From the NCBI RefSeq assembly GCF_988243305.1, contig NZ_OZ547136.1: a stretch of DNA of 64,000 nucleotides; one strand, 5' to 3'. The notes beneath the pieces were generated by a model. That model worked only from the letters and a program-made list of their open reading frames with translations. It ran no database searches and was not told where the DNA came from. Both the position numbers and the translations under genes were made by a program. Shown here in pieces: positions 8,194 through 24,527 of this stretch (position 1 is its first letter; the number at the start of each line of letters is the position of its first letter).

Positions 8194-10344
8194 TTAGTGG
8201 TGCGAAGAGATCTTCACGCCGCCTTCCGGGATTGGAACGTACGGTGTTTCTTTGTCAGTACGTTTGTCGCTGTTACGCACCGCAAGCCAGGTTTTGAAAC
8301 CATAGAAGATGATGCTGTACACCACGATCAGGAACAGAATACTCAGACCTGCGTTGGTGTAGTTATTCACAACGATGTGGTTCATGTTGGCAATCTGCTG
8401 CGCCGTCAGGTCAGTACCGTTAGCAATCTTCTCTTTGTACTGGCTTGCCATGTAGAAGAAGCCTTCCATCTGCGGGTTGGTACTGAACAGTTTCAGGCCC
8501 AGCGCCCAGGTGGTGCAGATAAGCAGCCATACAGCCGGAACAACAGTTACCCAGATGTATTGGGTGCGCTTCATCTTAATCAGCACAACGGTACCCAGTA
8601 CCAGCGCCACGGCGGCCAGCATCTGGTTGGAGATACCGAACAGCGGCCACAGGCTCTTAACGCCGCCCAGCGGATCGACCACGCCCTGATACAGCAGGTA
8701 GCCCCACAGACCCACACAGCCCGCAGTACCGATGATACCAGCAACCAGAGAGTCGGTTTTTTTCAGGAACGGGATGAAGTTACCCAGCAGGTCTTGCAGC
8801 ATAAAGCGGCCAGAACGGGTACCCGCATCCAGCGCGGTCAGGATGAACAGGGCTTCGAACAGAATACCGAAGTGATACCAGAAGCCCATGTCAGCCATCG
8901 GCAGTACTTTGTGGAACACGTGAGCGATACCTACCGCCAGCGTTGGCGCACCACCTGCACGGTTCAGGACAGAAGGCTCACCAATGTCTTTCGCGGTTTG
9001 CAGGATCTGCTCTGGCGAAATCACGAAGCCCCAGGAGCTGACGGTCGCTGCCGCGTGTGCGGTAACGTCTTTCAGCTGCGCCATGATGATCGGCGCGTTC
9101 TCGCCACCCATTTCATGCAGGTTAGGCATGGTGATGCCAAGGCCAGCAGGCGGGGTATTCATCGCGAAGTAAAGACCCGGTTCGATGATGGACGCAGCAA
9201 CCAGCGCCATAATCGCCACGAAGGACTCCATCAGCATTGCGCCGTAGCCAATGAAACGCGCGTCGGTTTCATTAGCCAGCAGTTTCGGTGTCGTACCGGA
9301 AGAGATCAGTGCGTGGAAGCCAGATACCGCACCACAGGCGATGGTGATGAACAGGAACGGGAACAGAGCGCCTTTCCACAGCGGGCCAGTACCGTCAATG
9401 TACTGGGTCATCGCAGGCATTTTCAGTTCCGGGTTCAGCACCACGATACCCAGCGCCAGGCCGACGATAACGCCGATTTTCAGGAAGGTTGCCAGATAGT
9501 CGCGCGGTGCGAGGATCAGCCACACTGGCAGCAGTGCGGAAACAAACGCATAGCCAATCAGCGCGAAGGTAATGGTGGTGTCTTTAAAGGTCAGTGCCGG
9601 ACCCCAGTACGGATCGTGAGCAATCACGCCACCGAAGTAGATAGAGGCAACCAGCAGCACGATACCAATGACAGAGACTTCACCCACACGCCCCGGACGG
9701 ATAAAGCGCATGTAGATACCCATAAACAGCGCAATCGGTACGGTTGAGCAAACGGTGAAGACACCCCACGGACTTTCGGCCAGGGCTTTAACCACAATCA
9801 GCGCCAGGACGGCGAGGATGATGATCATGATTAAGAAACAGCCAAACAGCGCGATAGTCCCCGGTACTGGTCCCATCTCTTCTTTGATCATCTCACCGAG
9901 AGATGCGCCGTTACGGCGAGAGGAGATAAACAGCACCATAAAGTCCTGTACCGCACCGGCCAGCACGACCCCCGCCAGCAGCCACAGCGTGCCAGGCAGG
10001 TAGCCCATCTGCGCGGCGAGAACCGGACCCACCAGCGGACCAGCACCGGCGATAGCGGCGAAGTGGTGACCAAACAACACGTAACGGTTGGTCGGAACAT
10101 AGTTCAGACCGTCGTTGTTAATAACCGCAGGCGTCGCTCGCGTGGGGTCGAGTTTCATTACCTTCTGGGCGATGTACAGACTGTAGTAGCGATAAGCCAC
10201 CAGATACACCGACACAGAGGCGACCACGATCCACAGGGCACTGACGTGCTCCCCCCGACGTAATGCAACTACCGCGAGGCAGAATGCACCGATGATTCCG
10301 AGAATCACCCAGGGTATGTGCTTGAATAGTTTTTTCGTATCCAT
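8194..10344 (-). CDS. btsT: CstA-family pyruvate/H+ symporter BtsT (YjiY), 716 aa
   Basis: Multi-pass membrane protein. Sequence from MDTKKLFKHIPWVILGIIGAF matches recalled BtsT. Start trimmed to the known Met. Confidence 0.9.
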   Translation of the reverse strand: MDTKKLFKHIPWVILGIIGAFCLAVVALRRGEHVSALWIVVASVSVYLVAYRYYSLYIAQKVMKLDPTRATPAVINNDGLNYVPTNRYVLFGHHFAAIAGAGPLVGPVLAAQMGYLPGTLWLLAGVVLAGAVQDFMVLFISSRRNGASLGEMIKEEMGPVPGTIALFGCFLIMIIILAVLALIVVKALAESPWGVFTVCSTVPIALFMGIYMRFIRPGRVGEVSVIGIVLLVASIYFGGVIAHDPYWGPALTFKDTTITFALIGYAFVSALLPVWLILAPRDYLATFLKIGVIVGLALGIVVLNPELKMPAMTQYIDGTGPLWKGALFPFLFITIACGAVSGFHALISSGTTPKLLANETDARFIGYGAMLMESFVAIMALVAASIIEPGLYFAMNTPPAGLGITMPNLHEMGGENAPIIMAQLKDVTAHAAATVSSWGFVISPEQILQTAKDIGEPSVLNRAGGAPTLAVGIAHVFHKVLPMADMGFWYHFGILFEALFILTALDAGTRSGRFMLQDLLGNFIPFLKKTDSLVAGIIGTAGCVGLWGYLLYQGVVDPLGGVKSLWPLFGISNQMLAAVALVLGTVVLIKMKRTQYIWVTVVPAVWLLICTTWALGLKLFSTNPQMEGFFYMASQYKEKIANGTDLTAQQIANMNHIVVNNYTNAGLSILFLIVVYSIIFYGFKTWLAVRNSDKRTDKETPYVPIPEGGVKISSHH

Positions 10345-10691
10345 AGTAAAACCTGGCATTTTACTCGTCGTCTTTTGGCTTACAGGTGCGGCAGCTGCGT
10401 TCGTTCACCCCTGTCACTTACTGTTGTAAGCTCCCGGGGATTCACTCACTTGCTGCCTTCCTGCAAACCAAAATCCATAGAGTAATTTGTTAATCATAGG
10501 CCGAAGCCGTTCTAGGTTTGCGTTGCGTTTGAGGAGGTAAATTGACCGCTATCCTGCAGTGATGTTGCCAGAGATACGCGCGCGTAAAGTAAGGTAAATA
10601 ACTGAGTGGTTATTTTAGGGATGTAAGCGGTCAGGAATGGCGGTGAGCGGTTGGGCAAGAATTATTCATCGGGTGGATATGTGATTGAGAT

Positions 10692-10730
10692 CACAATAAA
10701 AATGCCCCTTCGACGAATGCGTGAAGGGGC
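10692..10730 (-). terminator. Rho-independent terminator downstream of hpaC
   Basis: On the minus strand, GCCCCTTC-loop-GAAGGGGC followed by ATTTTTATT, immediately 3' of the hpaC stop. Confidence 0.6.
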
Positions 10731-10736
10731 TGGAGC

Positions 10737-11249
10737 TTAAATCGCAGCTTCCATTTCCAGCATCACCGGATGGAAACGGCGTTTAAAGTAGATAAGTCCG
10801 TGACCTTCTGCACTGAGGATGATGTTTTTAATCTCCACCAGATACACCAGATGTGTGCCAATTGCCTGCACATCGCGGATCTCACCTTCAAGACTGGCCA
10901 GCGAACCTTTTAGCACCGGCTGCGCCAGCGGACCTTTTTGCCAGCATGAGAGGCTAAAACGCTCTTCCATCGCCATGCCTGTCATGCCCGCGAAGTGGCG
11001 TGCCATCAGTTCCTGCTCATGGTTGAGGACGTTGACGCACAACTTGCCGTTGCCCTGAAAAACCGGGTTCATCGCACTGTTGGCGTTAATGCACACCATC
11101 AGCGACGGTGGTGTATCCGTGACCGAGCAGACAGCCGTTGCCGTAATCCCGCATTGTCCGGCGTCGCCCTCGGTGGTGATAATATTTACCGCTGCCGACA
11201 GGCTGGCCATTGCGTCACGAAAGCGCAGGCGTTGTTCATCTAATTGCAT
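10737..11249 (-). CDS. hpaC: 4-hydroxyphenylacetate 3-monooxygenase reductase component HpaC (flavin reductase)
   Basis: 170-aa flavin-reductase-like ORF immediately downstream of hpaB; part of the colinear hpa cluster. Confidence 0.88.
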   Translation of the reverse strand: MQLDEQRLRFRDAMASLSAAVNIITTEGDAGQCGITATAVCSVTDTPPSLMVCINANSAMNPVFQGNGKLCVNVLNHEQELMARHFAGMTGMAMEERFSLSCWQKGPLAQPVLKGSLASLEGEIRDVQAIGTHLVYLVEIKNIILSAEGHGLIYFKRRFHPVMLEMEAAI

Positions 11250-11266
11250 CTTAACCTCCTGCTGCG

Positions 11267-12829
11267 TTATTTCAGCAGCTTATCCAGCATGTTGATATCG
11301 TCGTTGTTGTGCAGGTGCGGCACAGTCCAGCCGTTCTGGTCGTATTCCGACAGGCAGCGATCAACCATCGCCATCATCTTGTCCATATTGCCGGAGCTTT
11401 GTGCCTGGCGCAGACACTGCAGGCGAATCTCATCCTGGCTACCGGAGTAGTTGATTTCATACAGTTCGTGACGACCACCAAATTCGCTGCCAATAGCATC
11501 CCACATCAGTTTGAGGATCTTGATGCGCTGGACGTGATCCATACCGTTCGAACCGCGCACATACTTCGCCAGATACTGGTCGATCTGCGGATTGTTCAGG
11601 TCACGGGCACTGGAAGGGAGATAGATCAGGCCACTGGTAACGTTGCGTTCGATAATGTTTTTGATCTTCGCGTAGGCCATTGGTGCCAGTACGCGATAGG
11701 TTTGCAGTGCGGCATGATCCGGTAAATAAGCCCCGTTGACCCACGGCGTCGCTTCTGAACACATCGAGTCACTCAATGCCCAGAAGGTGTTGCGCCACGC
11801 CACCACTTCACCGAGATCGGCCTGCACACCACGGAACTCCAGGGTGCCGGTACATTCGAGTGATTTTTTCAGCAGTGCCGTAATGAAGTCGAGTTTCACT
11901 GCCAGGCGCACACAGGCTTGCAGCGGATACATACGGGCGAAACCGCCTTCCATCGTCCAGCGACGGCAGCGATCAAAATCGCGGTAGATCAGCACGTTTT
12001 CCCATGGGATCAGCACGTTATCCATCACCAGAATCGCATCGTTCTCATCGAAGCGGCTGGAGAGCGGGTAGTCGTACGGCGAGCCGGTAGCACCCGCGAC
12101 CATCTCATAAGAGGCGCGGGAGATTAATTTCACGCCATCGGCATCCATTGGCGCAACGAACATCAGTGCGAAGTCCGGGTTTTCGCCCATCACTTGTGCC
12201 GAGCCGAAGCCAATCATGTTGTAGTGAGTCAGCGCCGAGTTGGTGGCAACCACTTTCGCACCGCTGACGATAATCCCGGCGTCAATCTCTTTTTCCAGCT
12301 TGATGTAAACGTCTTTCACTTTATCGGTCGGCAAATGACGATCAATCGGTGGGTTAACAATCGCGTGGTTAAAGTAGAGGCCAGTTTCCTGAATACGGGT
12401 GTACCAGTTACGGGCGTTCTGCTCGAACTGACCGTAAAAGCCCGGATTCGCGCCCAGTGCGCAACCGAAAGCAGCCTTGTAGTCTGGGGTACGGCCCATC
12501 CAGCCATAGCTCAGGCGTGACCACTCAGCGATGGCGTCGCGTTGCTGGCGCAGGTCGTCGGCACTTTTCGCCACGCGGAAGAATTTATGGGTATAGCCGC
12601 CGCTGCCGGTGTCGGTGTTCCAACACAGAGAGTCCTGCATCTCCGGTTTGTGCAGCGCGTCGTACAGTTGGGCAACAGACGCTGCCGCATTACGAAATGC
12701 CGGATGAGTGGTGACGTCTTTCACTCGCTCGCCATAGATATAGATCTCGCGACCATCCTGCAGGCTTTTCAGATACTCTTCCCCGGTGAACGGACGTTGG
12801 GTACTGGCGCGGAAATCTTCTGGTTTCAT
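11267..12829 (-). CDS. hpaB: 4-hydroxyphenylacetate 3-monooxygenase oxygenase component HpaB (520 aa)
   Basis: 520-aa ORF MKPEDFRASTQRPFTGEEYLKSLQDGREIYIYGERV... matches recalled HpaB. Confidence 0.92.
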   Translation of the reverse strand: MKPEDFRASTQRPFTGEEYLKSLQDGREIYIYGERVKDVTTHPAFRNAAASVAQLYDALHKPEMQDSLCWNTDTGSGGYTHKFFRVAKSADDLRQQRDAIAEWSRLSYGWMGRTPDYKAAFGCALGANPGFYGQFEQNARNWYTRIQETGLYFNHAIVNPPIDRHLPTDKVKDVYIKLEKEIDAGIIVSGAKVVATNSALTHYNMIGFGSAQVMGENPDFALMFVAPMDADGVKLISRASYEMVAGATGSPYDYPLSSRFDENDAILVMDNVLIPWENVLIYRDFDRCRRWTMEGGFARMYPLQACVRLAVKLDFITALLKKSLECTGTLEFRGVQADLGEVVAWRNTFWALSDSMCSEATPWVNGAYLPDHAALQTYRVLAPMAYAKIKNIIERNVTSGLIYLPSSARDLNNPQIDQYLAKYVRGSNGMDHVQRIKILKLMWDAIGSEFGGRHELYEINYSGSQDEIRLQCLRQAQSSGNMDKMMAMVDRCLSEYDQNGWTVPHLHNNDDINMLDKLLK

Positions 12830-13055
12830 GTCGACCTCTACAGTATTAATCGGAATACGATTGTTAATTTTGTGTGTTGTTTTTGTTATTCAATTGAATC
12901 GTTGAACGCGGTTGTCGGGAAGAGACGTTTCAGGCGAACGTTGGTACTTTTCGCCAGCAAGGTGGAGTTAAATAGTAAACTGCGATCGTGATCAACTTAC
13001 AGTAAGGCAAATCATAATATTCCCCGCTAACAAGGGCTAACGGGGACGGAATTGT
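12830..13055 (-). promoter_or_regulatory. Upstream region of hpaBC (expected HpaA-activated promoter)
   Basis: 226-bp non-coding gap upstream of hpaB. Inferred from known hpa regulation; no binding site mapped. Confidence 0.35.
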
Positions 13056-13994
13056 TTATGGGGCGAATGGAATGGTAATCGTCATATTTTCATGACCAAC
13101 GACGATAGGGCCTGAATAGTTTTTCTGTGCTTCTTGCTTCCATGTTTCATCCGGAACGGTGATTGGTACCAGGTGGCTAAGGATGAGTTTTTTCACTTTT
13201 GCTTCATTGGCAATTTTGCCTACATCCTCAATAGTCGTATGGTGAGAAGCAATGGCTTTTGCCAGTGTTTTACCATTGCCAATACTGTCTGCCAGCTTAG
13301 CGACGGAGGGCTCATGTACGGCCTCATGCACAAGTATATCAGCGCCTTCTGAGAAAGTTGCCAGTGGGGGAAAGTACGAGGTATCTCCTGAGAAGACAAT
13401 TCGCTTGCCTTGTGTGTCGAAGCGATAAGCAAAAGCCTCACCGTCAGGGAAAGGAGAATGAGGAACCTTTAATGCAGTCACGGTCACGGTATCATCTTTA
13501 TAAACTACGCCTTCACCAACATCTTGAGCTGTAACGAGCTTGCGAGGATCGGGTTTTCCTTCTTCTTCCATACGCAGTGTGATGTCCCGATCGAAGACCT
13601 GCCAACTGGCAGCGGTCATGGCTCGGGTACCTGGCGGACCGAACACATGAATATTTTTGTCCTGCAGACCGCTAGCCCATGCATTCATTAAGACTGAGGG
13701 ATAGTCCAGAATATGATCACTGTGTAAATGGGTGAGTAAAATATTATCAATCTGGCGCAGTGGAATATTATTTTTTACCAGTTGTAAGCTGGCCCCGTAA
13801 CCAGCATCAATTAACCATGTTTTATTGCCAATAATAAGTGCCGTTGCCATCGGCAAACGGTCAGCTTTTAATAAAGAAGGGCCACCTTTCGTTCCAAGTA
13901 GTACAATTTTCATTTCTTGCAGTTCGGAGGCGTAGGTGAATGCCACTGGCGCAATCAGGCACGCCACAAATAGTGAGCGTAAAGATATTTTCAT
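13056..13994 (-). CDS. Secreted metallo-beta-lactamase-fold hydrolase (HLHSDH motif, signal peptide), about 312 aa
   Basis: ORF track 13056..14051. Start set at MKISLRSLFVACLIAPVAFTYA (signal-peptide-like). HxHxDH motif (LTHLHSDHILDYP). Sits between hpaA and hpaB. Confidence 0.7.
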   Translation of the reverse strand: MKISLRSLFVACLIAPVAFTYASELQEMKIVLLGTKGGPSLLKADRLPMATALIIGNKTWLIDAGYGASLQLVKNNIPLRQIDNILLTHLHSDHILDYPSVLMNAWASGLQDKNIHVFGPPGTRAMTAASWQVFDRDITLRMEEEGKPDPRKLVTAQDVGEGVVYKDDTVTVTALKVPHSPFPDGEAFAYRFDTQGKRIVFSGDTSYFPPLATFSEGADILVHEAVHEPSVAKLADSIGNGKTLAKAIASHHTTIEDVGKIANEAKVKKLILSHLVPITVPDETWKQEAQKNYSGPIVVGHENMTITIPFAP

Positions 13995-14020
13995 GTCGAG
14001 TCTCTCAGGTTGATAAATGG

Positions 14021-14914
14021 TCAGCGACCACGGAATTGTGTTGGTGAGCAACCCATCATTCGGTTGAAAAAACGGGCGAAATAGGCGGGATCTTTGTAGC
14101 CAAGATCAAGGGCAATCTGGTTGATGCTTTGCTCGCTATAGAGCAGAAGCCGTCTGGCTTCCCGGCTCATTCGTTCGAAAATCAATCTCTTCGGCGATTG
14201 ATTGGCAAAACGTCGGCATAGCTCGGTAAGCCGTGATTCACTCATACCGAGCATTGCTGCATATTCAGGGACCATTAAATGTTGGCGATAATTTTCGTCA
14301 ATCAGCCGATTAAACTTCTGGAATAAACACATCTCGCCGCGCACGCTGCATGTTGAAATATCATTTGGTGGTGCTTCACGCAGTAGGATTGTAAAAATAC
14401 TTTGCGCCAGTGATTGCAATAGAATTTCCCGTCCTGGCTTATTTTGTTGAAACTCCAGGGATATTATCGGCCAATAATGATTTAATGCCGCCAGTGTATG
14501 TTCCATTCCCTCCAGCGACAGACAGATACCTTGTAGCATTGCGGCATCTCCACTACCAGGCCAGAGCTTTTCTACCAGGGGCCAAATTAACTCCTGACGT
14601 ACGGTCAGAACATGCCCGTCGCTATCAGGCTCAGTAAAGAAAGTATGTGGCACCGATGGTGGTGTTAGTACAAAAAGCGGTGCGCGCACAGAATAGAAGT
14701 GCTCATCCAGCTGTAAAGTAATGCGTCCAGTGACCAGATAATGGAGTTGAAAATATCTATCGTGCCAGTGAGGGCGCATATCGCGTCCAAAGAAATTCGC
14801 TAACCTGGCAAATGTTTCATAATGCACATCTTCACCAGCGTAGCGGGCATCATATTCCCGGACCAAATCAATATTTTCATAACCATGTTCAAAGATAGCT
14901 TCACTGGACATCAT
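14021..14914 (-). CDS. hpaA: AraC/XylS-family activator HpaA of hpaBC
   Basis: 297-aa ORF with a C-terminal AraC-type HTH (…YKDPAYFARFFNRMMGCSPTQFR), positioned between hpaX and hpaB. Confidence 0.85.
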   Translation of the reverse strand: MMSSEAIFEHGYENIDLVREYDARYAGEDVHYETFARLANFFGRDMRPHWHDRYFQLHYLVTGRITLQLDEHFYSVRAPLFVLTPPSVPHTFFTEPDSDGHVLTVRQELIWPLVEKLWPGSGDAAMLQGICLSLEGMEHTLAALNHYWPIISLEFQQNKPGREILLQSLAQSIFTILLREAPPNDISTCSVRGEMCLFQKFNRLIDENYRQHLMVPEYAAMLGMSESRLTELCRRFANQSPKRLIFERMSREARRLLLYSEQSINQIALDLGYKDPAYFARFFNRMMGCSPTQFRGR

Positions 14915-14920
14915 GACTCC

Positions 14921-16288
14921 TTATTGCGGTTTTGGTGCGATAAGTTCAGATGAAAGAGAGTGTTCCCGACTCCCCATAGGAATTCGGGTCATGACTAACG
15001 CGCCCAGTACCAGTAATCCTGCTACAAACCACAAACCTGAGCTAAAACTGCCGGTTGCATCTTTCAAAATACCGATAAGTAATGGACTGACTGCTGAACC
15101 TACATTACCGACAGCATTGATGACAGCCATCGCAACGGCACGCGATTGCAAGCTTATTACTTGATCCGGTGTCGTCCAAAAGATAGCCATTGCGGTAAAT
15201 GATCCCATTGAGGCCATAATGATGCCGCTCAGTTGAATGAGGCTGTGATCAGTCGCAGAAGCGAGTAACCATCCGGCAGCGGCAAACAGGTAGGGAAGAA
15301 TCGTATGCTTTTTGCGTTCTTTAAGACGGTCGGAACGACGACTCCACCAGATCATGCCAAAAATTGTGCAGAATTGGGGGATGGCCGCCAGCAAACCAAT
15401 CATGATGTTGCTACTGCCAGTATTGAAACTCTGTAGGATTTGCGGCGTCCAGATATTAATCGCACTCAGAGTATTGGTCAGGCAAAAATAAGCAAGTGTA
15501 TATAGCATGATGGCTGGGGTCAGGACTTCACGTAAGGTTGAGCGTGGAACAGATGCATGGGCAAATGCACTCTCTTGTTCACGGAGAATCATCGTTTTTA
15601 AAGCCTGTTTTTCGTTTTCATCAAGCCAGGTCGCCTGGTCTGGTGTATCGTTGAGATAAAACCAGGTGACGACACCAAGAATGACCGATGGCAGACCTTC
15701 CAGCAAAAAGAGCCATTGCCAGCCTTTTAGATTCCACAGTCCATCCAAGGCCAGAATGTAGCCTGAAAGGATCGATCCCAGCATCATAGTGACTGGCATC
15801 GCTATCATAAATAAGGCATTGGCTCTGGCCCGATGATATGCCGGGAACCACCAGGTCAGATAAACCAAAATACCAGGTAAAAAACCCGCCTCAGCAATAC
15901 CAACCAGCATACGCAGTAGATAGAGTGTTTCGGGGCTTGTTGCAAACATTGTGCAGGTGGAAGCAACTCCCCAGACCACCATGATCCCAGCGATCCATCG
16001 ACGAGCGCCAATTTTCGCTAACATCATATTACTGGGGATCCCGCACATGACGTACGTGACATAAAAGAGTGTCGCGGCGAGGCCAAACATTGTGGACGTC
16101 AGGCCAAGATCCTTGCCCATTGTCAGTCCGGCAAATCCTATATTGATGCGATCAAGAAACGAAAAAACAAACAGAATAAAAAGAAAAATGATTAGGCGAC
16201 GAAATAATTTATTAATGACACGATGTTCAATTTCAACAGTTTTATTATCTTTATATTGCAGGGTAGAGGTCGTCATGATGCGCTCCAC
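14921..16288 (-). CDS. hpaX: MFS 4-hydroxyphenylacetate transporter HpaX
   Basis: 455-aa 12-TM MFS protein in the hpa cluster. Confidence 0.85.
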   Translation of the reverse strand: MERIMTTSTLQYKDNKTVEIEHRVINKLFRRLIIFLFILFVFSFLDRINIGFAGLTMGKDLGLTSTMFGLAATLFYVTYVMCGIPSNMMLAKIGARRWIAGIMVVWGVASTCTMFATSPETLYLLRMLVGIAEAGFLPGILVYLTWWFPAYHRARANALFMIAMPVTMMLGSILSGYILALDGLWNLKGWQWLFLLEGLPSVILGVVTWFYLNDTPDQATWLDENEKQALKTMILREQESAFAHASVPRSTLREVLTPAIMLYTLAYFCLTNTLSAINIWTPQILQSFNTGSSNIMIGLLAAIPQFCTIFGMIWWSRRSDRLKERKKHTILPYLFAAAGWLLASATDHSLIQLSGIIMASMGSFTAMAIFWTTPDQVISLQSRAVAMAVINAVGNVGSAVSPLLIGILKDATGSFSSGLWFVAGLLVLGALVMTRIPMGSREHSLSSELIAPKPQ

Positions 16289-16297
16289 ATCGTACGT

Positions 16298-17101
16298 TTA
16301 GTAGACAGAGTTGTTGTTTTGCTTCGCCATCGAAATAGAAGAACTATTACCAAACCGTGCTGCCAGCGCTTCGGCGGCGCGGGCGAGCAGGGTGGTGTCA
16401 ACGCCGACGGCGACAAATAGCGCGCCCAGTTCCAGGTAGTGTTTTGCCAGTTGCTCATTGGCGATCAGGATACCCGGCGCCTTACCCGCTTCGCGGATCT
16501 GCACGATCGCCTGCTCAATCGCGGCCTGCACTTCCGGGTGTTGCGGATTACCGGCATAACCCATATCGGCGCTCAGATCCGCCGGGCCGATAAACACGCC
16601 GTCGACGCCTTCCACGTCCAGAATCTGCGGTAAGTTCTTCATTGCCTCACGCGTTTCGATCTGCACCAGTACGCACATTTGATCGTTGGCTTTTTGCAGG
16701 TAATCCGGAATACGGTTCCAGCGCGAGGCGCGTGCCAGCGCACTGCCCACACCGCGAATACCGGCGGGGGGATAACGGGTGGCGCGTACCGCTTCACGGG
16801 CTTCGTCGGCGTTTTGTACCATCGGCACCAGTAAGGTTTGTGTGCCGACGTCCAGCAGTTGTTTGATTTGCACCGGATCGTTCCACGATGGGCGTATCAC
16901 CGGCTGGCTGGGGTAGGGCGCAATCGCCTGTAGCTGGGTGAGCACGGTTTGCACGTTATTCGGCGCGTGCTCACCGTCGATCAATAACCAGTCGAATCCT
17001 GCTCCGGCCAGTAACTCTGCGCTGTAGCTGCTACTCAGCCCCAGCCATAATCCGATCTGCGGGCGGCCTGCTTTCAGCGCCGCTTTAAAACTGTTTTCCA
17101 T
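16298..17101 (-). CDS. hpaI: 4-hydroxy-2-oxoheptanedioate (HpaI) aldolase
   Basis: ORF track 16298..17242. Start trimmed to [19 protein letters not shown], the HpcH/HpaI aldolase N-terminus, 10 nt downstream of the hpaH stop. Confidence 0.85.
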
Positions 17102-17111
17102 CGTTCTCTCC

Positions 17112-17915
17112 TTAAACAAAGCGGCAGCTAATGGAGCCCATGTTGCCGTAATCGACGTGGAAGGTGTCGCCCTTACGCGCCGGAACCGGGCGGGTGAACG
17201 AACCGCCGAGAATGATTTGCCCGGCTTCCAGTTGTACGTCATACGGTGCGAGTTTGTTCGCCAGCCAGGCTACGCCGTTTGCCGGATGATTCAGCACACC
17301 AGCGGCGACGCCGGTTTCTTCAATCACGCCATTGCGATACATCAGGGCGGAGATCCAGCGCAGATCCAACTCATCGGGCTTAATGGGACGACCGCCGAGG
17401 ATCACCCCGGCGTTGGCGGCGTTATCGGAAATGGTGTCGAACACTTTGCGCGGGCGCTGGGTTTCCGGATCGATGTTGTGGCAGCGAGCGTCGATCAGCT
17501 CCAGCGCCGGGATCACATAATCCGTGGCGTTGTAGACGTCGAACAGCGTGCAGTTTGGTCCACGCAGCGGTTTTGCCAGCACGAAAGCCAGCTCCACTTC
17601 AATGCGCGGCACGATAAAGCGATCGGTCGGGATATCGCTGCCATCGTGGAAGAACATGTCATCCAGCAGGGCACCGTAATCCGGTTCGCTGATTTGCGAG
17701 CTGGCCTGCATCGCTTTCGAGGTCAGGCCGATTTTGTGGCCTTTCAGCGTACGGCCTTCGGCAATTTTCAGGCGGACCCATTCGCGCTGCACCGCGTAAG
17801 CGTCTTCGATGGTGATCTCCGGGTAATCCAGCGAGATCGCGCGGATCTGTTCGCGCTGTTTTTCTGCCTGATCCAGACGCTGGGCGATCAGGGTGTGGGT
17901 GTGTTTATCGAACAT
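17112..17915 (-). CDS. hpaH: 2-oxo-hept-4-ene-1,7-dioate hydratase HpaH
   Basis: Start set at [20 protein letters not shown] (267 aa). Confidence 0.85.
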
Positions 17916-17982
17916 GGCGATATCCTGTGGCATTGCCGGATGCGGCTGCGCCTTATCATCCGGCCTGGAAGCTGGTACAAAT

Positions 17983-18363
17983 TTATTTAAACAACGCGTG
18001 TACGTTGTTCTGTTTGAAATTCAACGTCGGGTGCAGCTCTGCAATCTCAAATGAAAGCGCCAGGTAACGGCTCTCCATCAGTGAGGCGAAGTGCGTTTTA
18101 ATCAGATCAAACAGCATTTCGCCTACTTCCTGACGGCTTTCCAGACTGCGCCCGCTGCCGATTTTTAGCGTCATATGCACAAAGGCGTAATCGTGCTTGC
18201 CATCAGCCATTTGCCAGGTATCGATCCAGTGCGCCCGGCTACGTATTCCCCCAAGCGGAAAAATCCCCGTCGCCGCCAGTGCAGTGTTAACACTGGCAAA
18301 CAGCTCAGGTAAGCGGGCTTCTTGACGAATATTTTCAGTACATTCCACGATAAAGTGCGGCAT
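17983..18363 (-). CDS. hpaF: 5-carboxymethyl-2-hydroxymuconate delta-isomerase HpaF
   Basis: 126-aa [25 protein letters not shown].... Confidence 0.85.
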
Positions 18364-18372
18364 GGTGGTTCC

Positions 18373-19224
18373 TTACGCGGGAAGCGGGAAAACAGCGTTA
18401 ACCTGACCGGTGCCAGAGCTTGGGAACAGCTCGGTGATAAACTCTACCTTGCCGTCGTATTTATCCCAGCCGAGCATCCCCAGCAGCATCACCGTGTCGT
18501 GCATATTGCCTTCGCCGTAGCAGTAGTCAGCGTACTCCGGCAGCATATTGCAGAACTCTTTGAACTGGCCTTCGCGCCACAACTTCACCACGCGCTCGTC
18601 CATCTGGCGGTCGAACTCGCGGGTGTAGCTGTTCATCCCTTCTTCCGCACGCTGATCGTCAATAAAGCGGTGCGATAATGAACCGCTGGCAAGGACCGCC
18701 ACGGTGCCGTCGTACTGTTCGATCGCTTTCAGAATCGCTTCGCCCAGCTTGCGGCTGTCGGCAAAATCATGAACGGTACAGAATGCGGAGATGGAGACCA
18801 CTTTGAAGTGCTTGTCTTCATTCATGTAGCGCATTGGCACCAGCGTGCCGTATTCCAGTTTCAGGCTGGGAATGTTGTGCGCTTTTGCCCGCACGCCGAG
18901 CTTTAAGGCTTCATCGGCAATTAGCTGCCCCAACTCCGGGTTGCCCTCGTAGTTGTAGGTCATGTCACGAATAAAATGCGGCAGCTCGTTACTGGTGTAG
19001 ACGCCTTCAAAATGGTCTGCACAGTTGATGTGATAAGCACTGTTGACCAGCCAGTGAGTATCGAAAACGATAATGGTATCGACGCCCATTTCCCGGCAAC
19101 GCTTGCTGATCTCTTTATGCCCGTCGATCGCGCCCTGGCGGCAACCGTGGTTTTTCCCTGGCAGTTCAGAGAGATACATCGACGGTACGTGCGTGATCTT
19201 GGCGGCTAACGCTAACTTACCCAT
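18373..19224 (-). CDS. hpaD: 3,4-dihydroxyphenylacetate 2,3-dioxygenase HpaD
   Basis: 283-aa extradiol dioxygenase-like ORF, 1 nt downstream of hpaE. Confidence 0.88.
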   Translation of the reverse strand: MGKLALAAKITHVPSMYLSELPGKNHGCRQGAIDGHKEISKRCREMGVDTIIVFDTHWLVNSAYHINCADHFEGVYTSNELPHFIRDMTYNYEGNPELGQLIADEALKLGVRAKAHNIPSLKLEYGTLVPMRYMNEDKHFKVVSISAFCTVHDFADSRKLGEAILKAIEQYDGTVAVLASGSLSHRFIDDQRAEEGMNSYTREFDRQMDERVVKLWREGQFKEFCNMLPEYADYCYGEGNMHDTVMLLGMLGWDKYDGKVEFITELFPSSGTGQVNAVFPLPA

Positions 19225-19225
19225 A

Positions 19226-20692
19226 TCAGACTCCCCATTTCGGAATTGGATGGTCGCCCATGGAAATGCAGACGTTCTTCATTTCCGCGAACACTTCGAA
19301 GCTGTACTCACCGCCTTCACGCCCGGTGCCGGAGGCTTTTACGCCGCCAAATGGCTGGCGCAGGTCACGCACGTTCTGGGTGTTGACGAACACCATGCCA
19401 GCTTCAATGCCACGCGCCAGGCGTAACACTTTGCTGACATCCTGTGTCCAGATGTACGACGCGAGGCCGTACTCCACGTCGTTTGCCAGACGTAAGCCTT
19501 CGGCTTCGTCTTTAAACGGCAGCAGGCAGGCGACCGGCCCGAAAATCTCTTCCTGGGCGACTCGCATACGGTTATCAACGTCTGCCAGCACGGTTGGGCG
19601 CAGGAAGTTGCCGCCTTTCAGGTGCGCAGGCAGGTCGGACGGTTTATCCGGACCGCCCGCCAGCAGGGTTGCGCCTTCTTCAATGCCGAGACGAATATAG
19701 CCGGAGACTTTTTCCCAGTGTTGCTGGCTGATAAGCGCCCCAACCTGGGTATTCGGATCGTTCGGATCGCCCACGCGCAGACGGTTGGCGCGTTCGGCAA
19801 AGCGTTTAACGAATTCCGGGTAGATGCTTTGCTGAATAAAGATGCGCGAACCGGCGGTGCAGCGCTCGCCGTTGATCGAGAAGATGGTGAACAGGGCAGC
19901 GTCCAGCGCGCGTTCAATATCGGCATCTTCAAAAATCAGCACCGGCGATTTACCGCCCAGTTCCATGGAGTATTTTTTCAGCCCGGCGTTTTTCATGATG
20001 TTGCGCCCGGTGGCCGTACCGCCGGTGAACGACACGGCACGTACGTCATGATGACGAACCAGCGCATCGCCTGCGGTTGCGCCGTAGCCCTGTACCACGT
20101 TCAGCACGCCCGCCGGAATACCGGCTTCCAGCGCCAGCTCACCCAGGCGGTCAGCGGTCAGCGGGGAGAGTTCCGACATTTTCAACACCGCGGTATTGCC
20201 CAGCGCCAGACACGGCGCGACCTTCCATGTGGCGGTCATAAACGGCACGTTCCACGGCGATACCAGCGCACAAACGCCTACCGGTTGCACCAGCGTGTAG
20301 TTGAGCATCTTGTCGTCAACCGGATAGGTCTTGCCGTTCATCTGCTGGCAGACTTCCGCGAAAAATTCAAAGTTGTGAGAAGCGCGTGGGATCAATACAT
20401 TTTTGGTCTGATGGATCGGCAGGCCCGTGTCCGCGGTTTCCATCGCGGCGATCTCAGGCACGTTCTGGTCGATCAGATCGCCCAGACGGCGCATCAGGCG
20501 CGCACGCTCTTTCATCGGCAGATTGGCCCATTTCGGGAACGCCTCTTTCGCTGCCGCTACCGCCTGATTGATCTCCGCTTCACCGCCGGAGGCCACATCT
20601 GCCAGCACTTCACCCGTTGCCGGATTGGTGGTCTGGAAGTAGTCGTTACCTGCAACATTTTTGCCGTTGATCCAATGATTTACTTTTTTCAT
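19226..20692 (-). CDS. hpaE: 5-carboxymethyl-2-hydroxymuconate semialdehyde dehydrogenase HpaE
   Basis: 488-aa aldehyde dehydrogenase family ORF; overlaps the hpaG stop by 4 nt. Confidence 0.9.
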   Translation of the reverse strand: MKKVNHWINGKNVAGNDYFQTTNPATGEVLADVASGGEAEINQAVAAAKEAFPKWANLPMKERARLMRRLGDLIDQNVPEIAAMETADTGLPIHQTKNVLIPRASHNFEFFAEVCQQMNGKTYPVDDKMLNYTLVQPVGVCALVSPWNVPFMTATWKVAPCLALGNTAVLKMSELSPLTADRLGELALEAGIPAGVLNVVQGYGATAGDALVRHHDVRAVSFTGGTATGRNIMKNAGLKKYSMELGGKSPVLIFEDADIERALDAALFTIFSINGERCTAGSRIFIQQSIYPEFVKRFAERANRLRVGDPNDPNTQVGALISQQHWEKVSGYIRLGIEEGATLLAGGPDKPSDLPAHLKGGNFLRPTVLADVDNRMRVAQEEIFGPVACLLPFKDEAEGLRLANDVEYGLASYIWTQDVSKVLRLARGIEAGMVFVNTQNVRDLRQPFGGVKASGTGREGGEYSFEVFAEMKNVCISMGDHPIPKWGV

Positions 20693-21978
20693 TTCGCTGT
20701 TTCCTCACTCACAATTCGGTTCACCAGGCGGCCCACGCCTTCTACTTCCACCACTACTTCATCGCCAGGCACCACGTCAGATAAGCCTTTTGGTGTGCCG
20801 GTGGCGATCATGTCGCCCGGATTCAGGGTCATAAATTCGCTTAAGTAGGCGATCAGGAAGGGCACGCTGAAGATCAGATCGGCGGTGGTGCCTTGCTGGC
20901 GTAACTCGCCGTTGACGAAGGTGCGAAGGGTCAGATTATGCGGGGCCGGGATCGCCTCTTTCGGCACGATGGTTGAAAGCATCGGCGTCAGTCCGTCGCG
21001 GCTTTTTACCCGCAGGTTAGGGCGGTAGTAGTTTTCCAGATAGTCGCGAATGGCGTAGTCGTTACACACGGTGTAGCCCGCGACATAATCCATGGCATCG
21101 GCTTCGCTGACGTTACGCGCCTGCTTGCCAATAACTACCACCAGCTCCGCTTCGTAGTGCATGTATTCAATATTGTTCGGGCGCACGGAGGTCTGGTTAT
21201 CGCCAGTGAGGGTATTCGGCGCTTTCAGGAACACCAGCGGTTCTTCCGGTGGCTTAAATTCCAGTTCGCTGGCGTGGTCGGCGTAGTTCAGGCCGAGGGC
21301 AAACAGCGTGCCGTGCGGGTGTGGCTGCGTTGGGAAGCTCTTGCGCGTGGTCACTTCACGTTCGTCCACTACCGGATTTTCCAGTGGCGGGAAACCTTCT
21401 GCGAGAACACGCACGCGATCGCCTGGCTGTATTTCCACGCGCGCCTGTGGCGTGCCGAGCAGAATGGCATCGCCTGGATTCAGCGTGGCAAATTCGCTCA
21501 GGGCGCTCAGCAACTGTGCGGCGTTACGTTGTAAATCGGCGGTATTCCAGTGATCGGCAGGACGCCCGTTGATCTCGGTATAGATAGTCAGATTATCGAC
21601 ATTGCTGAGAGCCACGGTTTCGCCAATGGGGCAGAATCCATCACGACATTTTGCTTTGATTGCCGGGCGGTAAAAGCTCTCTTCCGGCAGGCTGACGTCG
21701 TTAGCCAGCGCATATCCGGCGATGTACTCTGCCGCATCTTCTTCACGTACTTTCGTCGCCGTTTTCCCCACCATCAACGCAACAGTCGCACCGCTCAGTA
21801 CCTTTTCACCCTGTGGAAAGGGAATCCGTTCACCGCAACCAATCACCGTATTGCGCGGTTTAATAAACCAGACCGCAGTTTTAGGCGGGGTTTTGTAGGG
21901 GGATTGCTGGAACGCTTCCTGCCATGCATCAAGCTGGCTGCGATGGTTCAACGCTACGGCGAAGATAGTGCCTTTCAT
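20689..21978 (-). CDS. hpaG: Bifunctional 5-oxopent-3-ene-1,2,5-tricarboxylate decarboxylase / isomerase HpaG
   Basis: Duplicated FAH-fold protein. Start at MKGTIFAVALNHRSQLDAWQ (429 aa). Confidence 0.9.
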   Translation of the reverse strand: MKGTIFAVALNHRSQLDAWQEAFQQSPYKTPPKTAVWFIKPRNTVIGCGERIPFPQGEKVLSGATVALMVGKTATKVREEDAAEYIAGYALANDVSLPEESFYRPAIKAKCRDGFCPIGETVALSNVDNLTIYTEINGRPADHWNTADLQRNAAQLLSALSEFATLNPGDAILLGTPQARVEIQPGDRVRVLAEGFPPLENPVVDEREVTTRKSFPTQPHPHGTLFALGLNYADHASELEFKPPEEPLVFLKAPNTLTGDNQTSVRPNNIEYMHYEAELVVVIGKQARNVSEADAMDYVAGYTVCNDYAIRDYLENYYRPNLRVKSRDGLTPMLSTIVPKEAIPAPHNLTLRTFVNGELRQQGTTADLIFSVPFLIAYLSEFMTLNPGDMIATGTPKGLSDVVPGDEVVVEVEGVGRLVNRIVSEETAK

Positions 21979-22249
21979 TACCACTCCTCGGATTCGATCA
22001 TCTTAATCATTAATATGTTAATGATTACTTTTATTCCCGATTGCGTAGTTTGGCAAAAGTAAGTGATGTAAATGTGATCTAATTAACAAACTATTTACAT
22101 TTGCAGGTAATAAAATACTAAATATCAGTAAGTTAATAAAGTATGCTCAATTTTGATAAAATGAGGAATTGCGGGGATAGCTCAGTCCCGGTAACGTGAT
22201 GATTAACTGTTTCTATATTAATGATTTTGAATTTTTCAGGGGAAAGATA
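21979..22249. promoter_or_regulatory. Divergent hpaG-operon / hpaR promoter-operator region
   Basis: 271-bp AT-rich intergenic region between divergent hpaG and hpaR. Function inferred from known hpa regulation; no sites mapped. Confidence 0.45.
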
Positions 22250-22696
22250 ATGCACGACTCACTAACCATTGCGTTGCTCCAGGCGCGAGAAGCGGCGATG
22301 AGTTATTTTCGCCCAATCGTTAAACGGCATAATTTGACTGAGCAACAGTGGCGCATCGTGCGTATTCTGGCGGAAAGCCCATCAATGGATTTTCACGATC
22401 TGGCGTATCGCGCCTGCATTTTGCGCCCAAGCCTGACCGGGATCCTCACGCGGATGGAACGCGACGGTTTAGTGTTGCGATTAAAGCCGATCAATGATCA
22501 GCGGAAGCTCTATATCTCGCTGACCAAAGAGGGGCAGGCGCTGTATAACCGCGCTCAGACACAGATTGAAGAGGCCTATCGGCAGATTGAAGCTCAGTTT
22601 ACTGCCGAGAAAATGCAACAGTTAACCCATCTGTTAGAGGAATTTATTGCTCTGGGTAATTCCCGACAAGAAGACATCCCGGGCGATAATGAATAA
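22250..22696 (+). CDS. hpaR: MarR-family repressor HpaR
   Basis: ORF track 22196..22696. Start set at the ATG at 22250 (GGGGAAAG SD upstream), MHDSLTIALLQAREAAMSYFRP..., 148 aa. Confidence 0.85.
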   Translation: MHDSLTIALLQAREAAMSYFRPIVKRHNLTEQQWRIVRILAESPSMDFHDLAYRACILRPSLTGILTRMERDGLVLRLKPINDQRKLYISLTKEGQALYNRAQTQIEEAYRQIEAQFTAEKMQQLTHLLEEFIALGNSRQEDIPGDNE

Positions 22697-22757
22697 CTTT
22701 TTAATATCTGATAACCAGCGCCTGGTTTTTCCATGGATGGCGGGTTACACCTTTTCA

Positions 22758-22784
22758 TAAAGTTTTTCCTTTCCAGGCCGAAAA
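22758..22784 (+). promoter_or_regulatory. Sigma-28 (FliA) class III promoter of tsr
   Basis: TAAAGTTT-N11-GCCGAAAA matches the FliA consensus TAAAGTTT-N11-GCCGATAA, about 30 nt upstream of the tsr start. Confidence 0.6.
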
Positions 22785-22814
22785 TCTTGCATCGGTCCAC
22801 AGGAAAGAGAAACC

Positions 22815-24479
22815 ATGTTAAAACGTATCAAAATTGTGACCAGCTTACTGCTGGTTTTGGCCGTTTTTGGCCTTTTACAACTGACATCAGGCGGTCTGTT
22901 CTTTAATGCCTTAAAGAATGACAAAGAAAATTTCACTGTTTTACAAACCATTCGCCAGCAGCAATCCACGCTGAATGGCAGCTGGGTCGCGTTGTTGCAG
23001 ACGCGTAACACCCTCAACCGCGCGGGTATCCGCTACATGATGGATCAGAATAATATTGGTAGCGGTTCAACCGTTGCTGAGCTGATGCAGAGTGCCAGTA
23101 TTTCGCTGAAACAGGCGGAAAAAAACTGGGCGGATTACGAAGCGTTGCCGCGTGACCCGCATCAGAGCACCGCCGCAGCGGCAGAGATCAAACGTAATTA
23201 CGATATTTATCACAATGCGCTGGCGGAGCTGATCCAACTGTTAGGTGCAGGCAAAATCAACGAGTTCTTTGATCAGCCAACCCAGGGATATCAGGACGGT
23301 TTCGAGAAGCAGTATGTGGCTTACATGGAGCAAAACGATCGGCTCTATGATATCGCCGTCAGCGATAATAATGCCTCCTACAGCCAGGCGATGTGGATCC
23401 TGGTGGGCGTGATGATCGTCGTACTGGCAGTCATCTTCGCCGTCTGGTTCGGTATTAAAGCCTCGTTGGTAGCGCCAATGAATCGCCTGATTGACAGCAT
23501 TCGTCATATTGCAGGCGGCGATCTGGTGAAACCGATTGAGGTGGATGGCTCTAATGAGATGGGGCAACTGGCAGAGAGTTTGCGCCATATGCAGGGAGAG
23601 CTGATGCGAACCGTCGGTGATGTGCGCAACGGGGCCAATGCCATCTATAGCGGTGCCAGCGAAATCGCCACCGGCAATAACGATCTCTCTTCGCGCACCG
23701 AGCAACAGGCCGCTTCGCTGGAAGAGACGGCAGCCAGCATGGAGCAACTGACCGCAACGGTGAAACAGAACGCCGAGAATGCGCGTCAGGCCAGCCATCT
23801 GGCGTTAAGTGCTTCTGAAACGGCGCAACGCGGCGGCAAAGTGGTGGATAACGTAGTACAGACCATGCGCGATATCTCCACCAGTTCGCAGAAAATCGCC
23901 GATATTATCAGCGTAATTGACGGCATTGCCTTCCAGACCAATATTCTGGCTTTGAACGCGGCGGTTGAGGCTGCGCGTGCGGGTGAGCAAGGGCGCGGTT
24001 TTGCGGTGGTCGCGGGAGAAGTGCGTAATCTGGCCCAGCGCAGCGCCCAGGCGGCTCGTGAAATTAAAAGCCTGATTGAAGACTCGGTGGGGAAAGTGGA
24101 TGTTGGCTCTACGCTGGTCGAAAGCGCCGGGGAAACAATGGCGGAGATTGTCAGTGCCGTGACCCGCGTGACGGACATTATGGGCGAAATTGCTTCTGCT
24201 TCTGATGAGCAGAGCCGTGGTATCGATCAGGTTGGATTAGCGGTTGCTGAGATGGACCGGGTAACTCAACAGAACGCCGCGCTGGTGGAAGAATCTGCCG
24301 CCGCCGCTGCCGCGCTGGAAGAGCAGGCCAGTCGCCTGACCGAAGCTGTGGCAGTGTTCCGGATTCAGCAACAGCAGCAACAGCAGCGTGAAACATCGGC
24401 TGTAGTAAAAACCGTGACGCCAGCTACGCCGCGTAAAATGGCCGTGGCAGATAGCGGCGAGAACTGGGAAACGTTTTAA
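22815..24479 (+). CDS. tsr: Methyl-accepting chemotaxis protein I (serine chemoreceptor) Tsr, 554 aa
   Basis: Full-length match to recalled Tsr, including the C-terminal NWETF pentapeptide. Carries a 7-Gln run ([11 protein letters not shown]) in the C-terminal linker. Confidence 0.95.
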
Positions 24480-24488
24480 TCGCCATAA

Positions 24489-24521
24489 AAATGCCCGATA
24501 AGCAAAATGTTATCGGGCATA
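24489..24521. terminator. Bidirectional stem-loop terminator between convergent tsr and lgoT
   Basis: Inverted repeat ATGCCCGATAA...TTATCGGGCAT in the 48-bp convergent gap. Confidence 0.5.
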
Positions 24522-24527
24522 GGGAGT

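Follow-up and report, generated by a model that had tools for sequence, protein, structure and literature searches.

A very probable mosaic form of the Escherichia coli-type hpa (4-hydroxyphenylacetate) cluster between btsT and tsr, with a xenologous hpaX-hpaA segment and an adjoining metallo-beta-lactamase-fold hydrolase gene

The DNA stretch analysed here (64,000 nt of contig NZ_OZ547136.1, assembly GCF_988243305.1; "the window" denotes this whole stretch, and coordinates are window positions unless another locus is named) carries between btsT and tsr a cluster of hpa genes for the degradation of 4-hydroxyphenylacetate (4-HPA), which is very probably the chromosomal hpa cluster of the E. coli W/B/C type in a rare mosaic form: its central 3.4-kb segment would have been replaced by a divergent, AT-richer homologue of an enterobacterial lineage, and this replacement would have brought another permease (HpaX), another activator (HpaA) together with its cognate distal promoter DNA, and an extra gene behind hpaA that encodes a metallo-beta-lactamase (MBL)-fold hydrolase. 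The hpa island as such is already known as a classic strain-variable aromatic catabolic cluster of E. coli; it is present in E. coli W, B and C and missing from K-12, and its eleven genes were reportedly described by Prieto et al. in 1996 and Diaz et al. in 2001. Apart from the xenologous cassette replacement, the locus conforms to textbook knowledge.

Mosaic structure of the cluster

Outside the cassette (for all positions see Table 1) the island was 97-99% identical to a genome with the standard hpa allele, the alignable parts of the cassette itself reached ~59-73%, and the MBL gene was without counterpart in the standard allele. The same segment stood out by its base composition: GC content was 46.2% and third-position GC content (GC3) 0.41-0.47 in the cassette, as against 54.8% and 0.57-0.72 in the rest of the island and 53.7% GC in the standard cassette. 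An earlier note on this DNA, made from the sequence alone, had listed an extra MBL gene in the island; the gene is present, yet it is no simple addition and belongs to the xenologous 3.4-kb segment that has replaced hpaX-hpaA. The variant HpaX shared 70% of its amino acids (aa) with the standard E. coli protein and 71% with that of Salmonella, the latter two being 87% identical to each other; since the variant is thus equidistant from two proteins that are themselves closely alike, it represents an outgroup allele. Between the variant HpaA and the standard E. coli protein, identity was 58%.

Both ends of the cassette could be placed within genes or promoter DNA of the cluster. The left crossover lies at ~12905-12952 (BLAST breakpoint 12952) in the promoter region of hpaB (PBC), in which the ~50 nt beyond the proximal part are colinear with the standard allele and diverged, with conserved GAAAAGTACCA and TCTCTTCCCG blocks; because the diverged part keeps these blocks, the donor can be taken to have had hpaB downstream as well. 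The right crossover (16348/16349) falls into the last 50 nt of hpaI, the last ~12 residues of HpaI being derived from the cassette, and the distance from the hpaI stop codon to the hpaX start codon is 21 nt in the window versus 174 nt, including a REP-like repeat, in the standard allele. (This REP-like repeat, located at ~7145-7225 of locus L002 in strain 2014C-3599, matches each genome at a median of 23 places.) Homologous recombination between hpa clusters of different lineages would be the simplest mechanism for generating such a mosaic.

Gene content and predicted function of the island

Protein identity was assessed with NCBIfam equivalog models at their curated cut-offs and with Pfam at gathering scores; gene starts were taken from the RefSeq annotation of a genome 99.5% identical to the window. 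Eleven hpa genes and one MBL gene were indeed found at 10737-22696, each hpa product being full length and above its equivalog cut-off, and the NCBIfam matches ran end to end for all eleven, in agreement with the description of the cluster as complete and undisrupted. The six products of the hpaG-E-D-F-H-I meta-cleavage operon, which is complete, in canonical order and on a single strand, all exceeded their cut-offs. In the established pathway HpaX imports 3- and 4-hydroxyphenylacetate (3-HPA, 4-HPA), HpaA activates hpaBC, the HpaBC product homoprotocatechuate releases HpaR, and HpaGEDFHI convert homoprotocatechuate to pyruvate and succinic semialdehyde (PMC7201708). The window HpaB has Arg379, a residue required for the use of 3-HPA (PMC7201708). 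Because all hpa reading frames are intact, including HpaB with Arg379, the island is predicted to be functional and to allow growth on 3-/4-HPA as sole carbon source.

In comparison with the hpa cluster of E. coli W/B/C, the eleven genes, their order and orientation, the btsT-tsr site and 97-99% of the DNA sequence outside the cassette are the same (PMC3032704, PMC7201708); the window differs by its hpaX-hpaA allele (58-70% aa identity), the MBL gene between hpaA and hpaB and the chimeric C-terminus of HpaI, and the region measures 11,960 bp as compared with 11,127 bp in E. coli B.

Table 1. Positions of genes and other features at the btsT-tsr locus of the window
Feature	Positions	Strand	Basis
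btsT (yjiY), pyruvate/H+ symporter, conserved left flank	8194-10344	-	98.1% identical to K-12; CstA-family match; RefSeq
Imperfect palindromic repeat, 130 bp, upstream of btsT, outside the island	10360-10489	.	terminal 26-nt inverted arms
Conserved btsT upstream region with CRP-like site	10490-10713	.	K-12 homology to 10650, D-amino-acid-island homology to 10713
hpaC intrinsic terminator, left junction	~10700-10730	-	hairpin GCCCCUUCACG...CGAAGGGGC + UUUUUAUU, -18.9 kcal/mol, z = -3.1
hpaC, flavin reductase of 4-HPA 3-monooxygenase	10737-11249	-	NF012030, 385.6 bits vs cut-off 315, 1-170/170
hpaB, oxygenase component	11267-12829	-	TIGR02310, 1108.6 bits vs cut-off 885.2, full length
hpaB (PBC) promoter region	12830-13055	-	proximal ~75 nt same as standard allele; distal part homologous, diverged
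Variant cassette: hpaI 3' end, hpaX, hpaA, MBL gene, distal PBC region	12953-16348	-	BLAST breakpoints, composition
MBL-fold metallo-hydrolase gene, 312 aa	13056-13994	-	Pfam Lactamase_B_2
hpaA, AraC-type activator, divergent allele	14021-14911	-	TIGR02297, 490.6 bits vs cut-off 274.65
hpaX, major facilitator superfamily (MFS) 4-HPA permease, divergent allele	14921-16276	-	TIGR02332, 861.5 bits vs cut-off 615.4
hpaI, aldolase, chimeric	16298-17101	-	TIGR02311, above cut-off
hpaH, hydratase	17112-17915	-	TIGR02312, 464.6 bits vs cut-off 351.5
hpaF, 5-carboxymethyl-2-hydroxymuconate isomerase	17983-18363	-	NF011605, 263.5 bits vs cut-off 215
hpaD, homoprotocatechuate 2,3-dioxygenase	18373-19224	-	TIGR02298, 549.9 bits vs cut-off 315.95
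hpaE, semialdehyde dehydrogenase	19226-20692	-	TIGR02299, 739.3 bits vs cut-off 638.35
hpaG, bifunctional isomerase/decarboxylase	20689-21978	-	NF011750, 969.7 bits vs cut-off 811
hpaR, MarR-type repressor, divergent from hpaG	22250-22696	+	TIGR02337, 200.5 bits vs cut-off 121.2; RefSeq start
tsr, serine chemoreceptor, conserved right flank	22815-24479	+	NF011615, 1222.9 bits vs cut-off 947; 98.7% identical to K-12

Origin and spread of the cassette

The closest HpaX (91% aa identity) was that of the Enterobacter cloacae complex, the closest HpaA proteins were those of one enterobacterium (84%) and of Pluralibacter gergoviae (80%), and the closest MBL protein (85%) is encoded on a 1.2-kb contig with the same hpaA-MBL-hpaB order. 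Clusters of the Enterobacter/Pluralibacter type share with the window the tight hpaI-hpaX junction, an HpaX of 451-452 aa (91%) and an HpaA of 296-302 aa (80-84%), and one lineage of this type (L072) likewise has the order hpaA-MBL-hpaB; they differ in their GC content of 55-57% and in a DNA identity of only 72-77%, so that none of them is the donor, and the hpc cluster of Pluralibacter is without MBL gene and hpaBC and has a glyoxalase-type dioxygenase. (In P. gergoviae this 357-aa dioxygenase, at 4450-5523 of locus L058, takes the place of the LigB-type HpaD and is followed by multiple SymE-toxin-like reading frames.) In the donor scan with the MBL alignment, which covered one representative genome per species, the nearest MBL protein was that of Salmonella arizonae/diarizonae (76% aa, 67-72% DNA identity). 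The hpc loci of these salmonellae have the hpaE-D-F-H-I-hpaX-hpaA-MBL order in common with the window, but are situated beside cbpM/cbpA/scs, lack hpaBC within 7 kb and have 52-53% GC; with 67-72% identical DNA and 58-60% identical HpaA they are not the donor. Among the plasmids of PLSDB, only hpaX-hpaA sequences of 67-73% identity were detected, without the MBL part and without a copy of the island.

Two points speak against an import of the cassette as assumed here: no donor was found, the nearest relatives having 72-77% DNA identity and ~56% GC, and the synonymous divergence among carriers (up to 0.05) marks the cassette as old in Escherichia, so that it may be a relic as well as an import. 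The opposite polarity, in which the AT-rich cassette with the MBL gene would be the older Escherichia allele and the standard hpaX-hpaA a later import, is nevertheless distinctly unlikely. It would accord with a synonymous diversity among carriers as large as in the neighbouring genes (pS up to 0.05), with the finding of the cassette not only in several backgrounds but also in Shigella flexneri and in assemblies with an HpaA under the label E. fergusonii, and with the presence of hpaX-hpaA-MBL also in Salmonella arizonae; however, it is the standard cassette whose composition fits the island (53.7% versus 54.8% GC) and whose HpaX is 87% identical to that of Salmonella, as vertical descent predicts, the variant being compositionally aberrant and an outgroup to both of these HpaX proteins, and counted in 48 genomes versus 2,022 with the standard allele.

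Whichever the polarity, the carriers differ from each other by up to 1.3% in DNA, and the pS values reached among them indicate that the cassette is old in Escherichia. The replaced segment apparently travels with its island: the island of strain Z1323HEC0462 (compared with window positions 8300-24800) was 99.98-100% identical to that of the window, whereas the btsT/tsr flanks were only 98.0-98.9% identical, which indicates a recent transfer of the whole island between the two backgrounds, and the DNA beyond yjiA differs among cassette carriers. Such near-identical islands in different flanks and backgrounds imply that the island-plus-cassette spreads by recombination in the flanks. Independent decay was seen in several carriers: Shigella flexneri 2a (2457T) has the cassette with an MBL gene truncated to 255 aa and a split or uncalled hpaB, A30 has a frameshift in hpaI, and in GDSC2227PM hpaA is interrupted by an internal stop; the copy of the window is intact. 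(A frameshifted hpaA also occurs in the standard-allele strain 2014C-3599.)

The MBL-fold protein

The MBL gene starts 26 nt after the stop codon of hpaA. The N-terminus of its product (MKISLRSLFVACLIAPVAFTYA/SELQ) displays, as judged by eye, n-, h- and c-regions as in Sec signal peptides, with predicted cleavage after TYA22; this segment has low confidence in the AlphaFold2 (AF2) model, which as a whole reached a pLDDT of 91.6, and the close homologues all have equivalent hydrophobic N-termini. In the alignment of 53 homologues (40-83% identity) the residues HLHSDH (89-94), H179, D204, E224, H252 and H274 were invariant with the exception of S92 and D93 (each conserved in at least 90%); the full binuclear-metal motif set is present. 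By sequence as well as by fold the top match was 8GYG, the MBL-fold arylsulfatase of Pseudoalteromonas atlantica (phmmer E = 1.1e-25; Foldseek 7.8e-28, TM 0.84-0.85, 24% identity), followed among the structural matches by RNase Z, PNGM-1 and YhfI. Pfam assigned generic MBL families only, above gathering scores, no NCBIfam model exceeded its curated cut-off, and no beta-lactamase family was among the NCBIfam matches. The ratio of nonsynonymous to synonymous polymorphism (pN/pS) of the gene was ~0.1 among carriers. According to these features, the protein appears to be a secreted, periplasmic hydrolase of the RNase Z/AtsA branch.

Two specific assignments were rejected: the anti-Pycsar protein Apyc1 scored 19 bits in Pfam versus a cut-off of 50, and a class B beta-lactamase was matched by no curated model, the only related structure being the atypical, RNase Z-like PNGM-1 (22% identity). 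A cytoplasmic RNase Z/ElaC-type enzyme of tRNA 3'-processing would be compatible with the common fold branch of RNase Z/ElaC/ZiPD, the shared metal ligands and conserved catalytic motifs (HEA/HxT type), and the position of RNase Z models among the best NCBIfam and Protein Data Bank (PDB) matches, but its likelihood is practically negligible: none of the RNase Z models comes near its cut-off (at most 127 bits versus at least 252), the signal-peptide-like N-terminus is found in the window protein and in all close homologues, the tRNA-binding flexible-arm region of Bacillus subtilis RNase Z (~150-200) is left unaligned, and E. coli already possesses rbn/elaC.

The arylsulfatases of family S4 (AtsA of Pseudoalteromonas carrageenovora; 8GYG) share the MBL fold, the HxHxDH motif and a length of ~300 aa with the window protein and differ in sequence, the identity to 8GYG being only the 24% given above. 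AtsA carries a signal peptide. It belongs to the ElaC-related branch, and family S4 of SulfAtlas, placed next to ElaC, has a single characterised member, no natural substrate being known for the S4 enzymes (PMC5066984).

Linkage of the MBL gene to hpa/hpc genes

Orthologues of the MBL protein with 46-76% identity were found in or beside the hpa/hpc genes of several genera; 7-8 kb of flanking DNA per side were inspected, the statement on hpaBC in Salmonella referring to 7 kb. In Salmonella enterica arizonae, diarizonae and other Salmonella the gene directly follows hpaX-hpaA, with no hpaBC within that range; in Pseudomonas putida it is the last gene of hpaG1-G2-E-D-F-hpaX-H-I; in Alcanivorax and Alloalcanivorax it is inserted between hpaI and a succinate-semialdehyde dehydrogenase gene, which is followed by hpaR; in Stutzerimonas stutzeri it ends the series hpaR-hpaA-TRAP-MFS-MBL (TRAP, tripartite ATP-independent periplasmic transporter) and is immediately followed by a non-homologous C2/C1 4-HPA 3-hydroxylase, both components of which exceed their equivalog cut-offs; and an orthologue linked to hpa/hpc genes was also present in Salinisphaera. 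That the gene recurs in operons of varied layout and beside two unrelated hydroxylases speaks for a functional tie, and it probably forms a functional part of the hydroxyphenylacetate pathway. Homologues below ~35% identity showed no hpa linkage in any case within the same flank range. The literature search found no paper describing an MBL hydrolase in hpa clusters, and the conserved association appears to be undescribed. In Photobacterium (2085-11923 of locus L066), a homologue of 49% identity is flanked by two genes of the pyridoxal phosphate (PLP)-dependent decarboxylase family and a chemoreceptor gene, which hints at another aromatic-amine-related setting.

Proposed role of the MBL enzyme

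Judged from their spacing, hpaX, hpaA and the MBL gene would be read through from the meta operon. The enzyme may act in the periplasm on aryl esters of hydroxyphenylacetates with the phenolic oxygen as leaving group, O-sulfate being the leading candidate ester and phosphate the alternative; the freed phenol would then be imported by HpaX, and HpaB as well as HpaD need the phenolic oxygen free. We infer this periplasmic feeder role from location, fold, chemistry and synteny. That the enzyme is specifically an aryl-sulfate esterase is possible but doubtful; that the whole clade from Escherichia, Salmonella, Pseudomonas, Stutzerimonas, Alcanivorax and Salinisphaera represents a periplasmic first step of hydroxyphenylacetate/homoprotocatechuate catabolism, which removes the ester group from phenolic acids carrying O-sulfate (or O-phosphate), among them host conjugates of 4-HPA or 3,4-dihydroxyphenylacetic acid (DOPAC) and marine sulfated phenolics, is a still more tentative proposal.

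An analogous arrangement may be seen in the penicillin G acylase gene (pac) of E. coli W, for which a scavenging role was reportedly described by Diaz et al. in 2001: its product is likewise a periplasmic hydrolase that releases an aromatic acid from conjugates, and could thus serve as a precedent for a feeder hydrolase beside the hpa cluster. It differs in its unrelated N-terminal nucleophile (Ntn) hydrolase fold, in cleaving amides or esters at the carboxyl side rather than at the phenolic oxygen, and in its absence from the window. In E. coli W pac is located on the far side of yjiA, at a distance of a few kb from the hpa genes (PMC3032704), and a pac-like gene adjoins yjiA in one further assembly (L061; see below).

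Several observations weigh against a role in the pathway or against sulfatase activity. The protein is only 24% identical to the sole characterised arylsulfatase structure and has retained motifs of the HEAx/HxT type, as in RNase Z phosphodiesterases; the homologues of Acinetobacter have only an hpaR-like gene nearby, with paa genes in addition in one annotated locus (L020); and those of two Pseudomonas species, Castellaniella and Photobacterium (46-55% identity) are without hpa genes within 7-8 kb per side. The gene might instead be a passenger without catabolic role, encoding a generic periplasmic phosphodiesterase/nuclease or a weak PNGM-1-like beta-lactamase. The last-mentioned homologues would suit this explanation, as would the restriction of family matches to generic Pfam models with no NCBIfam cut-off reached, the strong structural matches to PNGM-1 and to phosphodiesterases (YhfI, ZiPD), and the fact that the MBL gene is dispensable for the function of the common hpa island of E. 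coli (PMC7201708, PMC3032704). A passenger is nevertheless rather unlikely in view of the hpa/hpc synteny in at least five genera with varied layouts, even with the non-homologous hydroxylase of S. stutzeri, the position of the Alcanivorax gene between two pathway genes, the purifying selection on the gene, and the absence of any match to an NCBIfam beta-lactamase model.

Alternative contents of the btsT-tsr interval

The strain-variable nature of the hpa island, as put forward in the earlier note, was borne out among 5,426 complete E. coli genomes: the standard hpa allele was present in 2,022 and the allele of the window in 48 (0.9%; all at least 99% identical). A five-gene D-amino-acid island occupied the interval in 194 genomes (2313-8020 of locus L004 in E. 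coli R32_14_1F; genes for an amino acid deaminase, an N-acyl-D-amino-acid deacylase, RidA, an Na+/solute symporter and a MurR/RpiR regulator), and a single hypothetical reading frame of 180 aa (2338-2880 of locus L005) in 363, comprising O157:H7 and relatives; the remainder of ~2,800 genomes, obtained by subtraction, was K-12-like in a spread sample. The boundaries are common to all states and lie upstream of both genes, ~180-250 nt from btsT and ~60 nt from the start codon of tsr. The btsT-tsr interval is thus a multi-allelic hotspot without mobility genes, with at least five states; a literature search on this hotspot yielded nothing relevant.

A sixth arrangement was found in three public assemblies (1-14175 of loci L060-L062), in which the variant hpa island stands in tandem with the D-amino-acid island (deacylase, deaminase, hpaR ... 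hpaC, btsT); these contigs are 96-98% identical to the window, and their HpaA, with 99% identity, carries the NCBI label E. fergusonii, which could not be verified. The tandem junction occurred in none of the complete E. coli genomes. Apart from 15 unique nucleotides at the joint, which recreate the hairpin described below, the D-amino-acid-only state equals the tandem minus its hpa block: positions 1-262 and 278-655 of L004 map to opposite sides of the hpa block in L060. Strains may have swapped the contents of the interval through homologous recombination within the conserved flanking DNA.

The cluster had been described as inserted between btsT and tsr. The site and the presence/absence polymorphism stand, and the gain implied by this word is only one possible direction, the interval being multi-allelic; loss of hpa in K-12 has been favoured elsewhere (PMC7201708). 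A classical mobile island that an integrase or transposase had recently brought into an empty site of the K-12 type would likewise produce presence/absence polymorphism and sharp junctions, but is highly improbable: integrase, transposase and tRNA genes and direct repeats of more than 7 nt are missing, the site in K-12 is not cleanly empty and holds an unrelated filler of 133 bp, the same boundaries enclose at least five alternative contents, the GC content of the island is host-like apart from the cassette, and no plasmid copy was found.

Junctions and flanks of the island

As noted earlier, btsT and tsr are neighbours and divergent in K-12 MG1655, where they are spaced by 377 bp. The alignment proposed in the earlier note, carried out by BLAST of the window against K-12 MG1655, revealed homology at 6974-10359 (98.1%), 10490-10650 (93.2%) and 22754-24158 (98.7%); these limits define a strain-specific block of 12,103 bp (10651-22753) in place of the 133-bp filler of K-12, which is unrelated to the island sequence. 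The junctions are situated at 10650/10651 and 22753/22754, the outer ends of hpaC and hpaR lying 86 bp and 57 bp inside them. At the right junction (22751-22754), which precedes the start codon of tsr by ~60 nt, homology resumes at 22752 in a K-12-like genome (L003) and at 22754 in K-12. On the left, the flank in common with genomes of the D-amino-acid island extends farther, to 10713.

The reported coincidence of the left junction with the hpaC terminator was confirmed, the shared flank ending inside the terminator hairpin directly after hpaC. The hpa and the D-amino-acid states share the btsT-proximal arm of this hairpin (GCCCCTTCG, + strand) together with the U-tract, and the complementary distal arm is contributed by each island itself (10700-10730 in the window, 2270-2310 in the L004 locus of R32_14_1F). 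Scans of the region for consensus promoters and terminators gave, as a point against the reading of the locus proposed here, no signal above shuffled sequence and counts below shuffle expectation; the hpaC terminator was missed by the consensus scan because its loop exceeds the limit of the tool, and was confirmed by folding. A CRP-like site (TGTGA-N6-TCACA, 10681-10696) is placed ~215 nt upstream of btsT if an intervening repeat is not counted, i.e. at the same distance as in K-12-like genomes (2258-2273 of L003), the preceding 26 nt being unrelated between the states. The intervening repeat, the 130-bp palindrome at 10360-10489, presumably belongs to the ERIC/IRU type (enterobacterial repetitive intergenic consensus/intergenic repeat unit), to judge from the consensus core; it is missing in K-12, BH100N and ST2747, present in the standard-allele strain 2014C-3599, and gave one stray plasmid match.

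No integrase or transposase gene was encountered, as the earlier note had stated: all reading frames of at least 80 aa were accounted for, shadows of hpa genes excepted, and the largest unassigned gap of 392 bp leaves no room for a mobility gene. Flanking direct repeats were likewise absent, the longest k-mer common to both ends being 7 nt (direct or inverted); there was no tRNA gene in 6000-27000 and no Rfam match within 8000-25000. GC content is 54.8% in the island minus the cassette and 51.9% in the window; the aberrant composition is limited to the 3.4-kb cassette and does not extend over the entire island.

Further left of btsT, yjiX and yjiA are followed by a variant immigration-control region: at 992-6499, left of yjiA, the hsdR/mrr region of K-12 is replaced by genes for an HsdM-like methylase (784 aa) and a restriction enzyme of the GmrSD type (699 aa) and by a reading frame of 244 aa without Pfam match.

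Implications

The btsT-tsr interval shows that, in the absence of mobility genes, five or more alternative contents can be accommodated between identical boundaries, one of these boundaries being located inside a shared terminator hairpin. Within it, the variant cassette provides a clean case of allele replacement inside a catabolic island, in which a sub-segment of an operon has been swapped for a xenologue. As the sensor (HpaA) and the transporter (HpaX) were exchanged together with promoter DNA, the carriers may respond to a different substrate spectrum, which would be of relevance to HpaA-based biosensors and to the engineering of HpaBC strains. The link between the MBL gene and hpa/hpc genes across gammaproteobacterial genera is a lead to an undescribed peripheral reaction. 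If the proposed role of the enzyme is true, gut bacteria might exploit conjugated phenolic acids via the MBL hydrolase, the S4-like MBL sulfatases would gain a first physiological substrate, and the rare E. coli allele would represent a niche-expanding variant.

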